Below, in pieces: positions 31,655-62,222 of a stretch of DNA of 64,000 nucleotides. The stretch lies in the NCBI GenBank assembly GCA_018384735.1, contig JAHAXB010000022.1:68087-132086 (forward strand). Reading direction: 5' to 3'. The notes beneath the pieces were generated by a model that was given only the letters and a program-made list of their open reading frames with translations, did no database searches and had not been told where the DNA came from. This DNA is from Eubacteriales bacterium (GTDB taxonomy: Bacteria > Bacillota > Clostridia > Christensenellales > UBA1242). A program made the position numbers and the translations under genes. The first letter of the stretch is position 1; each line of letters starts with the position of its first letter.

Positions 31655-31658
31655 GAAG

Positions 31659-32546
31659 TTAGTAATACTTTTTGCGGCTGTTGATGAGTTCCCAGTATTG
31701 ATAATCGAGGGAGCGGAAAACGCGTTGCGCACTGATAACGGTAACGTGGGCATTAACCAATGCATCGACCACATCTTGAACACGTTCAGGTTTCAAATTG
31801 ACAATCACTTGGTCGCCACAAAGACGGGCAGGAACTTGGAAAACGTCTTCAAGTACTTTGGCGGCGTAGTTTGGTTCGGCAACGGTTACGCCCAATTTTG
31901 CATTGTCAAGTTCGCGGGCAACCATGGCGTTGTAAGATTGAATGCTGATAATCATGCCGTCATCAATAAATGCAATGGTGTCGCAAAATTCCTCGACCGC
32001 GGAAATCTTGGAGGCCGTAACCATGATTGAGGTGCGGAGTTCCTTACCAATCTTCTTTAACAAAACGCGTAAGTCCTTGGCTTGTTGTTTATCTAAGTTA
32101 GCGAACGGATTATCCAAAATTAAAATGTCGGTGCGTAAAATTAATGGTAAAGACATTTTTAGTAAGTCACGTTCCGCCAAGGTCAATTCGGAAATTTTGT
32201 GGTTATAGTGTTTGCGCAAGTTAAATAACGCCAAAATATTTTTTGCATTGCGTCCGTGGTAAGCGTGGTCGCGTAATTTGCAATAATCCTTAATCGCGTT
32301 TTTCACGGTAATATGGGGCATTAACTGTTCGTGCGGAATAAAAGCGCCCATGTATTGGTTAGCGGAAACTTTAATTGAACCGCGTGTTTTGTGTGATAAA
32401 GTTAAAATCAATTTTGACAATAAACTTTTACCGCTGGCGTGTTCACCTACCAAAGCCAAAATTTCGCCTTCGTGCAAAGTTAAATTAACATCGGTCATTA
32501 ACATTTTTTTAGAATCGGCTTTTTCCAAATTAGTTACTGTTAACAT
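31659..32546 (-). CDS. ABC-type ATPase with degenerate catalytic motifs
   Basis: Walker A GEHASGKS is intact. Signature reads LTLAE, Walker B ILILDN (Glu to Asn), H-loop position TASK (His to Lys). Start ATG 32546 overlaps the upstream stop. The rest of ORF 31659..32822 is an upstream extension. Confidence 0.8.
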   Translation of the reverse strand: MLTVTNLEKADSKKMLMTDVNLTLHEGEILALVGEHASGKSLLSKLILTLSHKTRGSIKVSANQYMGAFIPHEQLMPHITVKNAIKDYCKLRDHAYHGRNAKNILALFNLRKHYNHKISELTLAERDLLKMSLPLILRTDILILDNPFANLDKQQAKDLRVLLKKIGKELRTSIMVTASKISAVEEFCDTIAFIDDGMIISIQSYNAMVARELDNAKLGVTVAEPNYAAKVLEDVFQVPARLCGDQVIVNLKPERVQDVVDALVNAHVTVISAQRVFRSLDYQYWELINSRKKYY

Positions 32547-33535
32547 ACAAACCAACTCCTTTTGTACAAAACAACCATGAAAATGAAACGCACTAACGGG
32601 AACGGTGCAAAAACCAATAACCACAACACTGACGGAGTAGTGGTAGCAAAACTGGAAGCGACCACCAAAACAATTAAAATGAAAGTGAAAATCAACTGGC
32701 GAATACCGGTCGTTTTTTTGTCGAACATCGTTTTGATACGTGGGTAAAAAATGTAGATTGCTAACCAAATTAAAGCGTACAAAACCAAAGTAATGTAAAC
32801 GATACTGTAACATTCTTGGCAAATATTATGGGTTAACGAAAAAATAAAATTGATTAGTACAAACAAAGCCGTGGTCAGCGTCATAGAGACTACGCGCAAA
32901 CGATTAATGAAGACGTAATCGTTGCCCACCGGAATACTGTTCAAATCTAATAATGGGCGCAGGTCGCTGCCACCCGTGGTACCGGACAAGCCGATTGTCG
33001 TTTGTTGGTATTGTGGTGCTGGAGTAGCCGTAATCTTTTCGTTGGGCGCAATGTACGGTGTATACGGCGAAAGTTTGGATTCTTTCTTGGTTGCTGGCGC
33101 CGGTTGCGTTGCCGTGGTCGGCGTTGGGTTAATTTGCAAAACGCGTTTTTCCTCGGGCAGTTCCGACACTAACGGTTTTTTGTTCAACGGCAAAGAAAAA
33201 GCCTCTTCCAAAGAAGCAAAGGTTTTTTGTGCCTTAACCGAATTGTCGGCAATTTGTTGATAATCAATTTTAATCGGATTTTTCGCTAAATATTCGCGTC
33301 CGGTATTGGTAATGTTATAAACGCGGCAACGACCACCAATCGAGGATTCTTTTTGATAACTGTTGACATATTTTTTGTCCGCCATGCGGTGCAAAGAAGA
33401 ATACAAGGTCGGCAAAGACATAATCACCGTATTACCCGATAATCGTTTAATTTCGTCAATCATCTCAGCACCGTACATTGGACGATTGCTGAGCAAATTG
33501 AGAATGGTAATTTCTGTCATTCTACCGCGTGCCAC
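32540..33535 (-). CDS. PadR-family winged-helix regulator fused to a 4-TM membrane domain
   Basis: N-terminal PadR pattern (ILNLLSNRPMYGAEMIDEI...LPTLYSSLHRM...YNITNTGREYL), P/T-rich linker, then four hydrophobic helices. GTG 33535 or ATG 33520. Confidence 0.8.
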   Translation of the reverse strand: MARGRMTEITILNLLSNRPMYGAEMIDEIKRLSGNTVIMSLPTLYSSLHRMADKKYVNSYQKESSIGGRCRVYNITNTGREYLAKNPIKIDYQQIADNSVKAQKTFASLEEAFSLPLNKKPLVSELPEEKRVLQINPTPTTATQPAPATKKESKLSPYTPYIAPNEKITATPAPQYQQTTIGLSGTTGGSDLRPLLDLNSIPVGNDYVFINRLRVVSMTLTTALFVLINFIFSLTHNICQECYSIVYITLVLYALIWLAIYIFYPRIKTMFDKKTTGIRQLIFTFILIVLVVASSFATTTPSVLWLLVFAPFPLVRFIFMVVLYKRSWFVC

Positions 33536-33601
33536 AATACAATTTTAATGTCGAAACAATCCCCTTGTCAAGTCAAACTGGGTTGCGGTATCATCTTTTT
33601 A

Positions 33602-34279
33602 ATGTTAGATCCACGCAATATTATTCGTACTAACAAGCGCACTTTGTCGCTTATGGTTAACGCTAAGGGAGAACTGATTGTGCGTGCGCCTTATAACTAT
33701 CCGGAAAGTAAAATTTTTGCTTTCATCAAGGAAAAAGAAGACTGGATTTTAAAGAAACAACGCGCTATTCGCAGTAACTCCTACATTAACCCCAACGTAG
33801 TCGATTATACGACCTTTTTGTTTCTTGGCAAGGAACTGACCCCGCTGATTACCAAAGATGTGAAAGAGATTATGATTAGCGAAAATAAATTGCTAATTCC
33901 GGCCAGGTTTCCCAGCGAAAAAATTCTTGGCAAGGTCGAAAAATGGTACCGCAAAGTTGCCGCCGAAGTCTTGGTGGAGCGGGTGCGTTACATGGCGGAA
34001 CGCTTGAAGTTACGTCCGAATGAAATTACCACTAACAACAATAAAACCCGCTGGGGCGTATGTGACAGTCATGGTAACATTGCGATCAACTGGCGTGCCA
34101 TCTTTTTACCGCCAAATTTACTGGATTACATTGTGGTACATGAATTGTGTCATTTGTTAGAATTTAACCATACGCCCGCTTTTTGGAATGTTGTGGGCAA
34201 TTGTATTCCAGATTATCAAATGCTAAGAAAACACTTAAAATGCCTAAATTACTTGATTTTGTTGTTCAGAAAGGAGTAA
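33602..34279 (+). CDS. YgjP/DUF45-like zinc metallopeptidase (M48 superfamily)
   Basis: HELCHLLEFNH (HExxH). ATG 33602 follows TTGTCA-18-TATCAT-7 nt. Confidence 0.8.
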   Translation: MLDPRNIIRTNKRTLSLMVNAKGELIVRAPYNYPESKIFAFIKEKEDWILKKQRAIRSNSYINPNVVDYTTFLFLGKELTPLITKDVKEIMISENKLLIPARFPSEKILGKVEKWYRKVAAEVLVERVRYMAERLKLRPNEITTNNNKTRWGVCDSHGNIAINWRAIFLPPNLLDYIVVHELCHLLEFNHTPAFWNVVGNCIPDYQMLRKHLKCLNYLILLFRKE

Positions 34280-60001: not shown

Positions 60002-61528
60002 TTATAAGCGGTTAAACATGCGTTGACCAATCGTATAAGTTAAAGTAATCACAATTGCATCCGCCAATGCTAAAGCACTAGCAATAATTGCAAATAGGGC
60101 CATCGCCGGCAAACTGTCAGCCAATGAAATTACTAAAGCCATCATACCGGCAACAATTACCACTCCCCCCAACATCATCAAATAAGAACTCATACTGTGT
60201 TTAATTACTGCGGCTTCGCTTTCAAATTCTAATTTTGGGAAATACAAGTTGACCATTACGCCGATGTATGAAACCAATACATGAGCCAATGTCGGGATAA
60301 TCAACAAAGCCACCAGGCATAATGGCGACAAATGCAAAATCGTTCCCAACAAAACGCCACAGACTAACGAAATTGGTGTTAATAGAATCACGTTAAATAA
60401 TACTTTCGTGCTTAACACTGTTGCAGCTGAAATGGGCATACTACGTAAAATCCATAATTGTTTTCCTTCCAGCGAAATTGAGAAAGCAGCTGGATAAGTT
60501 AATACACCAGCTGCAGCATAAATAATGGCAATAATCAAATAAGCAACATCTTTTGATATAACAAAAGTACCGCACAGTAAACCAACCATAGTTGCACCTT
60601 GGTCAACAACCAACCAAATGGTCAAAGCAACCAAAGCCAATGGGCCTAAAATCGTATTCAGCATCATGGTCGGTGAGTTAAAATAGCGGTTACTTTCATT
60701 TTTCAAAATGGCTCGGAAAGGCGTAATTGATCTATGACTAATTTGTGTTGCTTTCGCATGCGTTGAGCGAGCTTCACGGTTTAATAATAATGCATTCAAC
60801 CAATTTCCCAAAATAAACATGGCCAAAACTATCACAATCAACGGGACCATTACCAATGGATTAAACTTTACCATCCAAATAATCAAACCCGCGATAAATG
60901 GCGTATTCATATTCAACATGAAAAATTCATAAATGGCTAGAACCCCAATTAAAACTAATAAAGTAAATAACGCCTTTGTAATATTACCCAATTTTGAATT
61001 CGAGAAACAAACTGTAACTAAATAATCAACGATGTAAGATAAACCTACGCCTAACAAAGGAATTAACAGCATGGTTGTGGTGCAACCGAAAAATGCCGGA
61101 AGGCTAAATTGCGTGGTTCCCAAATATGCAATGATACACGGTAAAAAGAACAGTACCACAACCAACGAGTTTACTGCAAAACGTGATAAGGCTTTGGCAA
61201 CCATAATCTCAATTTTCCTAAACGGCATACTCAACAGTAATTCGTTATCGTTAGCTTTCTGTCCACCTGTAACCTTTTGTAAGGCAAAAATTACCGAAAG
61301 GAAAAGTGAAATAACCAAACCGTACATCAGAACACAGGCTTGCATATTCATTTCGGCGTAAACATCTGCAATCATAAACATGCACCATGTATAGAAAGCA
61401 AACCACCCCAATGACAAAACGGTCAAAATCGAAACACCAACAACAGCTTTGGTACGGGTGTTTTTACGGCGTAAGTTACCGATGCTACAAAGTAGATAAT
61501 TTTTTAACAGCAACCAAATGTTACGCAT
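60002..61528 (-). CDS. Multi-pass ABC exporter permease (about 12 TM)
   Basis: 508-aa polytopic membrane protein. Start overlaps the stop of the ABC ATPase gene upstream. Confidence 0.75.
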   Translation of the reverse strand: MRNIWLLLKNYLLCSIGNLRRKNTRTKAVVGVSILTVLSLGWFAFYTWCMFMIADVYAEMNMQACVLMYGLVISLFLSVIFALQKVTGGQKANDNELLLSMPFRKIEIMVAKALSRFAVNSLVVVLFFLPCIIAYLGTTQFSLPAFFGCTTTMLLIPLLGVGLSYIVDYLVTVCFSNSKLGNITKALFTLLVLIGVLAIYEFFMLNMNTPFIAGLIIWMVKFNPLVMVPLIVIVLAMFILGNWLNALLLNREARSTHAKATQISHRSITPFRAILKNESNRYFNSPTMMLNTILGPLALVALTIWLVVDQGATMVGLLCGTFVISKDVAYLIIAIIYAAAGVLTYPAAFSISLEGKQLWILRSMPISAATVLSTKVLFNVILLTPISLVCGVLLGTILHLSPLCLVALLIIPTLAHVLVSYIGVMVNLYFPKLEFESEAAVIKHSMSSYLMMLGGVVIVAGMMALVISLADSLPAMALFAIIASALALADAIVITLTYTIGQRMFNRL

Positions 61529-62222
61529 TCAAGAATACCTCTTCCAAACTCTTGTCGGCTTTAATTTCCTTCATCGTACCTTGCTTGATTACAGTACCAT
61601 TCTTAATCATAATTACTTTGTTACATAACTTTTCGGCAACTTCCAATACATGGGTTGAATAAAAAATCGCGCCGCCATTTTTGACAAATTCTTGCATCAA
61701 TTTTTTCAAAGTAAATGACGCTTGAGGATCCAAACCGACGAATGGTTCATCCAAAACTAATAATTTCGGATTACGCATGAACGCCGCAATTAAAACTAAC
61801 TTTTGACGCATACCATGTGAATATGATTTAATTGGTAGTCCCAAACTTTCGGTCATACCCCATTCATCCGCATAGCGCGCAATCGCTTGATCACGGTCTG
61901 CAATGGAAACACGATAAACCGAAGCGACAAAGCTTAAATACTCGTTACCGGTTAAGTTGGTATAAACATCTGGATTGTCAGGAATGTAAGCAATCACACG
62001 CTTACACGCCAATGGGTCATTTTTAATCGAATGGTTATCAATTAAGATTTCCCCGGCTTCAAAATCCAAGGTTCCCACTATGCAACGAATGGTTGTAGTT
62101 TTACCGGAACCATTTGGTCCAATAAAAGCGCAGATGTCCCCTGCTTCGACCGACAAATTTAGATTTTGCACGCCAACTTTCCCGTCAGCGTAGGTTTTGG
62201 TTAAATTACTAATTTTTAACAT
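61521..62222 (-). CDS. ABC transporter ATP-binding protein (catalytic motifs intact)
   Basis: GPNGSGKTT, YSHGMRQKL, LLVLDEPFVGLD, STHVL. Confidence 0.92.
   Translation of the reverse strand: MLKISNLTKTYADGKVGVQNLNLSVEAGDICAFIGPNGSGKTTTIRCIVGTLDFEAGEILIDNHSIKNDPLACKRVIAYIPDNPDVYTNLTGNEYLSFVASVYRVSIADRDQAIARYADEWGMTESLGLPIKSYSHGMRQKLVLIAAFMRNPKLLVLDEPFVGLDPQASFTLKKLMQEFVKNGGAIFYSTHVLEVAEKLCNKVIMIKNGTVIKQGTMKEIKADKSLEEVFLNA

Follow-up and report, generated by a model that had tools for sequence, protein, structure and literature searches.

The question raised by this locus is what a membrane-tethered transcription regulator does with a translationally coupled ATP-binding cassette (ABC) ATPase that has lost most of its catalytic motifs and has no permease gene beside it. 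The locus occupies positions 31,659 to 33,535 of a 64,000-nucleotide (nt) stretch of DNA, referred to here as the window, from a Eubacteriales bacterium of the order Christensenellales (GenBank assembly GCA_018384735.1, contig JAHAXB010000022.1, positions 68,087 to 132,086 of the forward strand). Its two genes are called PadR-TM, for the regulator with its transmembrane (TM) helices, and ABCdeg, for the degenerate ATPase, and the source genome is called G000. The data presented in this study make it somewhat more probable than an even chance that the tethered PadR regulator, the pseudo-ATPase and a permease now encoded elsewhere form a split ABC-2 module that signals or regulates instead of pumping. 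Both open reading frames (ORFs) were confirmed as given in a preliminary description of the window made without database searches:

31659–32546, minus strand: ABCdeg, a degenerate ABC-2-type ATPase of 295 amino acids (aa), made of a nucleotide-binding domain (NBD) and a DrrA/PmtC/NosF-like C-terminal domain
32540–33535, minus strand: PadR-TM, 331 aa, a predicted membrane-tethered PadR-type regulator

The assignment of ABCdeg to the ABC ATPases is secure. The ABC_tran model (PF00005) was matched with 56.6 bits against a cut-off of 25 (E 5.4e-15), and the protein aligned over its full length with the PmtC, DrrA and GldA models, which represent ABC-2 ATPases with a C-terminal domain. The AlphaFold2 model had a predicted local distance difference test score (pLDDT) of 89.9 and gave more than 1,200 ABC matches in the PDB when searched with Foldseek. 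The best full-length matches were PmtC (6xji_C), NosF (7o0y_B, TM-score 0.79) and TM_1403 (4yer), with E values of 4e-20 to 1e-17 for structures of this type. Homologues of ABCdeg fall into about 70 clusters with 37–99% identity, all intact ORFs of 295–304 aa, and below this family identity falls abruptly to about 26%, the level of generic ABC-2 ATPases. The parts of the protein that matter for its activity are as follows:

32424–32447, minus strand: Walker A, G34-E-H-A-S-G-K-S41
32172–32186, minus strand: degenerate signature motif, L121-T-L-A-E125
32109–32126, minus strand: Walker B, I141-L-I-L-D-N146
32007–32018, minus strand: H-loop region, T177-A-S-K180
31662–31919, minus strand: C-terminal regulatory-type domain of the ATPase, residues 210–295

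Column entropies, computed on 59 ungapped ABCdeg orthologues (protein mean 0.74 bits), divide these motifs into two groups. Walker A is invariant except at position 37, no variation is seen in the ILILD of Walker B or in the Q-loop Glu, and the C-terminal domain is among the best-conserved parts of the protein. The signature, on the other hand, is LSGGQ in canonical proteins and YSLGMKQ in ABC-2 relatives, whereas the ABCdeg family has L[ST]xxE, without the Gly-Gly and without the Gln, with entropies of 3.2 and 2.3 bits at positions 123 and 124. The catalytic Glu of Walker B is replaced, and position 146 shows no preference among N, S, A, Y, D and E (1.9 bits). The D-loop column is among the most variable, and the catalytic-Glu, signature, D-loop and H-loop-His columns together span 1.9–3.3 bits. 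The preliminary description had read the Walker A, signature and Walker B motifs as GEHASGKS, LTLAE and ILILDN, and these readings hold, with the addition that the degeneracy is found throughout the family and is not a one-off. It had also reported that the H-loop His is lost, which stands, and that Lys180 takes its place, which does not: in alignments to canonical ABC proteins the His falls on Ser179, a position occupied by S, R, P or Q and by His in no family member (2.0 bits). Of the hallmarks of an ABC ATPase, ABCdeg therefore has the NBD fold, Walker A and the Walker B Asp and lacks LSGGQ, the catalytic Glu and the H-loop His. One distant orthologue (locus L047, G207:C82:686-1717) also lacks the Walker A Lys (GIEDSGND), with the permease gene still next in line.

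G000 and G240 are the closest pair of genomes, and between them the ratio of nonsynonymous to synonymous substitution (dN/dS) was 0.07 in the ATPase gene, 0.12 in PadR-TM and 0.09 in the permease gene introduced below. The ATPase is more conserved than either of the other two proteins. This pattern of conservation indicates that ABCdeg keeps the residues that bind Mg-ATP and the fold, that its hydrolysis residues are free to vary, and that this combination is a selected trait of the family. ABCdeg can probably bind ATP but not hydrolyse it.

The absence of a permease at the locus is real. The era gene, on the plus strand, converges on the ATPase gene with only 4 nt between the stop codons (31655–31658). 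However, the preliminary description had gone on to conclude that there is no permease partner and that the pair is not a transporter for that reason, and this conclusion fails, because a partner permease that co-varies with the pair is encoded elsewhere in the genome. When the permeases of two genomes of sister genera (G249 and G207) were used as tblastn queries against G000, an orphan permease of 508 aa was found at C47:10822-12348. In its predicted topology, a single TM helix at the N terminus is followed by about 260 aa of outward-facing domain and then by five further TM helices. The permease gene is immediately followed by rnhA, on a contig that encodes no ATPase. The reciprocal best match of this permease in G249, and its only strong match there, is the permease adjoining the degenerate ATPase (E 1.4e-44, full length). 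The C47 permease is conserved in the other two genomes of the same genus, G240 (71%) and G199 (58%), and in G199 it lies about 107 kb from the PadR-TM/ATPase pair on one contig. Its family comprises 51 clusters with 33–96% identity, a range that mirrors those of the PadR-TM and ATPase families, and always has the same context, with asd divergent on one side and rnhA downstream. One family member shares a 371-kb contig with a PadR-TM/ATPase pair.

Additional comparisons place this protein among the ABC-2 permeases. A profile-profile comparison (hhalign) of the C47 permease family with the canonical ABC-2 permeases of sister genera gave 99.9% and E 4.9e-32, and the two families have in common an N-terminal ELKK helix with little or no variation. 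In type V ABC systems, elements of this kind make contact with the NBD. In a sample of 121 genomes of the family, strong orthologues of the permease were confined to genomes with the degenerate ATPase. Within G000, all other ABC ATPases have an adjacent membrane partner of their own, the C47 permease was the sole ABC-2-like permease to be found with no ATPase, and ABCdeg alone among the ATPases has no permease beside it. The Pfam models PF12679, PF12698 and PF01061 detected no ABC-2 permease in G000, a false negative because the C47 permease is too diverged, and a search of G000 with the G066 permease likewise gave no match. It is therefore easy to conclude that no permease exists. These comparisons identify the C47 permease as the orthologue of the cognate permease, co-retained with the pair throughout the clade. 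G000 thus has the cognate permease that an ABC-2 system needs, but not the arrangement of ATPase and permease as neighbours in one operon.

Two complete ABC systems of G000 may be described here. A canonical ABC-2 pair at C41:45845-47520 (minus strand) consists of a 304-aa ATPase (FSLGMKQR, LILDEP, SSH) overlapping a 254-aa permease with 6–7 TM helices, and adjoins a cluster that resembles restriction-modification genes. A heterodimer of ABCdeg with a canonical NBD such as the one from this pair (C41:46606-47520) was considered and rejected, since both composite sites would retain degenerate halves and this ATPase already has its own overlapping permease. The second pair is in the window itself (60002–62222, minus strand), where a 233-aa ATPase (61521–62222) overlaps a 508-aa polytopic permease. 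Downstream of it are two fused half-transporter genes, from about 63197 onward.

How the permease came to be separated can be followed in the sister genera. The genomes of the family are small (0.7–1.4 Mb), and loci were compared within the family. One further gene is needed for this comparison, the divergent neighbour of PadR-TM:

33602–34279, plus strand: YgjP/DUF45-like zinc metallopeptidase with an HELCH motif (PF01863, E 5.9e-53)

In G066, G262, G171 and G228, the DUF45 gene and PadR-TM are divergent, and the ABC-2 genes that follow encode a canonical ATPase (YSLGMKQR, LDEP, SSH) and a permease whose length is about 590–700 aa. In G152, G207 and G249, the gene directly after PadR-TM is the ABCdeg orthologue, already degenerate, and a permease of 513–525 aa comes next. 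The rnhA gene comes after the permease in G152 and G249, while the G207 contig is too short to show the flanks. The locus in sister genera runs from the divergent DUF45 gene through PadR-TM, the degenerate ATPase and the ABC-2 permease to rnhA. In the genus of the window (G000, G199 and G240) and in metagenomic members, PadR-TM and the degenerate ATPase are met by the convergent era gene. As side observations, an opposite-strand gene of the VTT/DedA type (PF09335) lies between PadR-TM and the canonical ABC-2 genes at loci L044, L048 and L050 (in G262, G171 and G228, respectively), and G032 and G144 have, downstream, the gene of a 'small multidrug export' protein (PF06695) in place of the VTT/DedA-type gene.

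Taken as a series, these gene orders show that the ATPase became non-catalytic, to judge from its motifs, before the permease gene separated from it. Likewise, the substitution rates together with the gene orders show an ancestral three-gene module of which all three genes have been kept under purifying selection since the split. The model proposed here is that a rearrangement split this module, leaving the regulator and ATPase in the window and the permease beside rnhA on another contig. ABCdeg, as a homodimer-type ATPase, would still dock on the C47 permease, and the complex would no longer pump. Instead it would report a state that could depend on ATP occupancy, on a ligand or envelope cue received by the outward-facing domain of the permease, or on both. 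This state would be passed to the co-translated PadR-TM, whose external loops appear too short for sensing of its own, and PadR-TM would then alter transcription from its own promoter and at further targets. The nucleotide-binding sensor suggested in the preliminary description thus remains plausible, but as part of a system of three proteins and not of two. A more specific version, which must be regarded as tentative and is clearly less probable than the module as such, is that the ABC-2 complex has turned into a non-hydrolysing receptor and that the pseudo-ATPase relays directly to PadR-TM, made in a 1:1 ratio with it, with ATP occupancy setting the state. If true, this would be an 'ABC-coupled one-component system' that needs neither a kinase nor ATP turnover. 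No histidine kinase is encoded at the PadR-TM/ATPase locus or the permease locus.

The regulator that would receive this signal is made of four parts:

33281–33505, minus strand: PadR winged-helix DNA-binding domain (PF03551), residues 11–85
33056–33184, minus strand: Pro/Thr-rich tether, about residues 118–160
32894–33055, minus strand: conserved juxtamembrane segment, residues 161–214
32561–32893, minus strand: four-helix TM domain, residues 215–325, from hydropathy and AlphaFold2

The PadR domain scored 60.8 bits against a gathering cut-off of 27 (E 1.3e-16), which places the protein in the PadR family. The winged helix, linker and four TM helices are as the preliminary description had them. 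The homologues form 55 clusters with 36–98% identity and share one architecture, all with PF03551. Directly after the PadR domain, ahead of the tether, the residues S114-L115-P116 are invariant. The tether itself is variable in length and sequence in both alignments (A1 and A2) and reaches 300–900 aa in order-wide relatives. It is followed by the juxtamembrane segment (consensus PYIAPxEKIT..QYQQTxIGLSGTxGGxDLRPLLxLN..VGNDYVxINRLR), in which Y161, Q178, G185, G188, L192, R193, N199, N211 and L213 are invariant. Relatives without the degenerate ATPase share only the N-[RK]-L-[RK] part of this segment, just before the first TM helix, and the extended motif (LRPLL..LN) is restricted to the clade whose permease gene is split off. 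This extension and the conserved C-terminal domain of the ATPase are candidate contact surfaces, as a correlation within one lineage. The four hydrophobic segments (approximately 215–235, 243–264, 279–299 and 303–325) were modelled by AlphaFold2 as four helices with pLDDT 85–93; the PadR part of this monomer model is of low confidence. The loops between TM1 and TM2 and between TM3 and TM4 are short, and the loop between TM2 and TM3 is cytoplasmic and basic (YPRIKxxF).

The four-helix domain had no Pfam match, and the comparison of the PadR-TM model with the PDB by Foldseek returned nothing significant, the four-helix bundle included. No HAAS/DUF1700/DUF1129/DUF1048-type partner domain was matched by Pfam in PadR-TM or its neighbour genes. 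When a profile restricted to the juxtamembrane and TM parts was run against 1.84 billion representative sequences, 30 proteins were found, and an N-terminal PadR domain was present in all 10 that were tested. This excludes the possibility, raised in the preliminary description, that the TM region is a frameshift artefact. Proteins of about 450–1,065 aa with a PadR domain, a long acidic tether and a C-terminal four-TM domain are common across the order. PadR-TM thus has a DNA-binding domain and TM helices in one polypeptide that is conserved as a unit, as expected of a transmembrane regulator, and the comparisons indicate that the fusion is genuine, ancient and order-wide and is older than the link to ABC genes. 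Since it usually occurs without an ABC gene, an ABC membrane domain was not the source of its TM domain. For the same reason the idea that this domain acts as a surrogate ABC membrane domain was downgraded.

Expression of the two genes depends on two elements:

33542–33571, minus strand: promoter of the PadR-TM/ATPase operon (TTGACA, 18 nt, TAAAAT)
32556–32562, minus strand: Shine-Dalgarno (SD) sequence AAAGGAG of the ATPase gene, 9 nt before the ATG at 32546 and within the PadR-TM codons for K-R-S

The promoter matches the consensus at 11 of 12 positions and is the only strong one on the minus strand, with none between the two genes, and orthologous loci have kept this block even though the identity of their proteins is only about 50%. 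A single strong and conserved promoter upstream of PadR-TM indicates that the pair is one transcription unit. Because the GTG start of PadR-TM (33535) lies 7 nt past the -10 element, the mRNA is probably leaderless or nearly so. The GTG is conserved in orthologues, and at locus L001, where the downstream ATG is absent, it is the sole start that keeps the first helix of the PadR domain. A GTG start is unusual for leaderless mRNAs, which normally need AUG.

The overlap between the stop codon of PadR-TM and the ATG of ABCdeg was also described correctly in the preliminary account; it spans 7 nt (ATGTTAA). The co-occurrence of the fusion with a degenerate NBD was searched for in other genomes and was found, with the identical overlap at L001, L002 and L003, and the context of the pair is kept down to 36% PadR-TM identity. 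As a result of the SD sequence and the overlap, positions 32540–32562 (minus strand) are dual-coding, and the conserved PadR-TM tail KRSWFxC doubles as the SD and start of the ATPase gene (TGT TAA / ATG TTA). Relatives without the overlap (G152 and G249) have different tails. The invariant C-terminal Cys331 was considered as a functional residue, but the overlap with the ATPase start codon explains it more simply, so its conservation probably reflects a constraint at the nucleotide level. At the other end of the operon, the gap of 4 nt to era holds no terminator-like hairpin, and at L001 the era and ATPase genes overlap.

Two short sequences are common to 33541–33587, in the PadR-TM/DUF45 intergenic region, and to G000:C33:44337-44373, upstream of the operon of a 476-aa ABC ATPase. 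One is a 16-mer (AATTTTAATGTCGAAA) that is inverted at one locus relative to the other, and the second is an 11-mer (AACTGGGTTGC) that lies in a promoter spacer. Their joint occurrence at both loci is unlikely to be due to chance. They were not adopted as an operator, since a search of G199 that allowed up to one mismatch did not recover the C33-type site.

Several points weigh against the split signalling module. The loss of ATP hydrolysis is deduced from motifs alone, and we infer all contacts among the ATPase, the permease and PadR-TM. The Walker A of some distant members lacks its Lys (G207) or its Gly (P0124), so that even ATP binding seems to be dispensable in places. No operator was found: there are no inverted repeats of at least 8 nt within 33500–33630, and the promoter of the pair and the upstream region of the permease share no motif except the -10-like TTAAAAT. 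The synteny was inherited vertically in one clade, which means that its repeated co-occurrence is not independent evidence. In addition, the draft of G000 is 92.8% complete in 77 contigs, and another partner could be unassembled. Finally, an ABC ATPase was downstream of the PadR-4TM gene in none of 20 order-wide genomes sampled. Elsewhere, then, the PadR-4TM regulator does without an ABC partner, and plain operon co-regulation could account for the link seen here.

The alternative that survives best, which we nevertheless regard as unlikely, is a device of two proteins without any permease, in which the helices of PadR-TM are the sole membrane partner and the ATPase is an ATP/ADP sensor that gates the tethered regulator. 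The overlapping junction, with 7 nt shared in every member and the SD sequence inside the PadR-TM tail, would suit such a device. The same is true of the conservation on the cytoplasmic side, in the loop between TM2 and TM3 (P265 and K268) and the juxtamembrane segment, of an LRPLL..LN motif present only where the permease gene has moved away, and of invariant Mg-ATP-binding residues. However, it does not account for an orphan cognate permease that has been co-retained over the whole history of the clade and keeps a docking-type N-terminal helix. The ATPase was already degenerate with the permease still adjacent in G152, G207 and G249. Moreover, the PadR-4TM domain predates the association with ABC genes, usually occurs without one and matched no known ABC membrane domain.

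Also improbable is that the locus is an ordinary autoregulated efflux operon, with PadR-TM as the repressor, an exporter that hydrolyses ATP through non-canonical residues and a permease gene that has merely moved. PadR regulators beside ABC exporters are common, as in LmrR-LmrCD and LftR-LieAB, and sister genera do have a canonical ABC-2 ATPase and permease at the same position. The intact Walker A, Walker B Asp and Q-loop and the purifying selection on all three genes are consistent with a working exporter as well. What this explanation has difficulty with is the rest of the catalytic site: a catalytic-Glu position without preference, an H-loop His absent in every member, a signature missing its GG and Q, and a D-loop free to vary. 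A homodimer would have both of its sites crippled, and in G207 even the Walker A Lys is lost.

The DUF45 peptidase gives rise to a third explanation, which we rate as doubtful and place after the other two. It is the most constant neighbour of PadR-TM order-wide, usually divergent and sometimes with one gene of about 250 aa between them. The gene is beside PadR-TM at loci L001, L003, L017, L019, L021, L023, L025–L027, L033 and L039 and also at L041, L042, L044–L046, L048 and L050. The peptidase is a candidate for a protease that releases PadR-TM, and the ATPase would be incidental, with PadR-TM controlled mainly by proteolytic release and the ABC genes carried as cargo of its regulon. The far greater constancy of DUF45 than of the ABC genes, the retention of its HExxH motif and the invariant S-L-P ahead of the tether all favor such a role. 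However, DUF45 is predicted to be cytoplasmic, without TM segments, and strong selection on a translationally coupled but non-catalytic ATPase would be left unexplained. Release by DUF45 is also compatible with the split module. The last explanation, that the ATPase is a pseudogene in the making after the operon broke, would fit the lost catalytic motifs and the missing neighbour but is very improbable and effectively refuted by the selection data, given some 70 clusters of intact ORFs, a dN/dS of about 0.07, a conservation of the ATPase above that of PadR-TM and the permease, an invariant Mg-ATP site and C-terminal domain, and a confidently predicted fold.

The findings bear on more than this locus. 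Degenerate nucleotide sites have been studied extensively in heterodimeric ABC exporters, which still have one active site. ABCdeg is a natural experiment of another kind, a homodimer-type NBD without the residues for hydrolysis in which the Mg-ATP site and the permease have nevertheless been kept. It would reveal the role left to an ABC system that binds ATP without being able to hydrolyse it. PadR-TM represents an uncharacterised family of regulators, with a PadR domain, tether and four TM helices, across an order of gut Clostridia with few regulators per genome, and for that reason each regulator in these small genomes probably matters. There is also a lesson for genome scans, as comparison with sister genera located a diverged orphan permease where the Pfam ABC-2 models found none.

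Comparison with known systems shows what is shared and what is not. PmtCD of Staphylococcus aureus, NosDFY and TM_1403 have the same NBD fold and C-terminal regulatory-type domain as ABCdeg, but ABCdeg has lost the signature, catalytic Glu, D-loop and H-loop His, and these positions are under no constraint. ABC-2/type V exporters have a homologous permease (PF12679 in the relatives) and, likewise, one ATPase and one permease per genome. They differ in that here the permease gene is unlinked and the ATPase gene has the gene of a membrane-tethered regulator as its translationally coupled neighbour. LmrR-LmrCD, LftR-LieAB and LadR-MdrL have a PadR regulator beside ABC or efflux genes, as do the sister genera with a canonical ABC-2 pump. 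However, LmrR, LftR and LadR are soluble, drug-binding proteins of 110–190 aa, whereas PadR-TM is membrane-tethered and its pump motor is degenerate.

Among membrane-bound regulators, BcrR of Enterococcus faecalis, ToxR and CadC resemble PadR-TM in having an N-terminal DNA-binding domain and C-terminal TM part in one polypeptide. PadR-TM differs from them in its PadR domain, in place of an XRE or OmpR type, and in its long disordered tether. BcrR has four TM helices, and both it and PadR-TM are genetically linked to an ABC system and have no kinase. However, BcrR senses bacitracin itself and controls an active transporter, whereas the ATPase linked to PadR-TM is non-catalytic and sensing by its TM domain is putative. 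A published survey of such transmembrane transcription regulators makes no mention of PadR in its main text (PMC10269533). Dyads of HAAS-domain and PadR-like winged helix-turn-helix proteins also place a PadR-type domain under membrane control as an alternative to two-component signalling (PMC11237479). In these dyads a free-standing PadR protein acts with a membrane partner that has the HAAS (DUF1700/DUF1129/DUF1048) domain (PMC11237479), whereas in PadR-TM the PadR domain itself is fused to the TM domain and no HAAS domain was detected.

The closest parallel in logic is BceAB-BceRS, where an ABC system with a large outward-facing permease domain reports to a membrane protein whose external loops are minimal and which is unable to sense on its own, as proposed for the module described here. 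The Bce system uses an FtsX-type permease with 10 TM helices, an active ATPase for flux sensing and a histidine kinase, none of which is present in this case. By analogy, the module would resemble a Bce-type sensing transporter joined to a BcrR-type one-component regulator, minus the kinase and the ATP turnover. It belongs to neither family, since it differs in permease type, DNA-binding domain and ATPase activity and has no kinase. What is new here is the relocated cognate permease, together with the graded series of loci in the sister genera.

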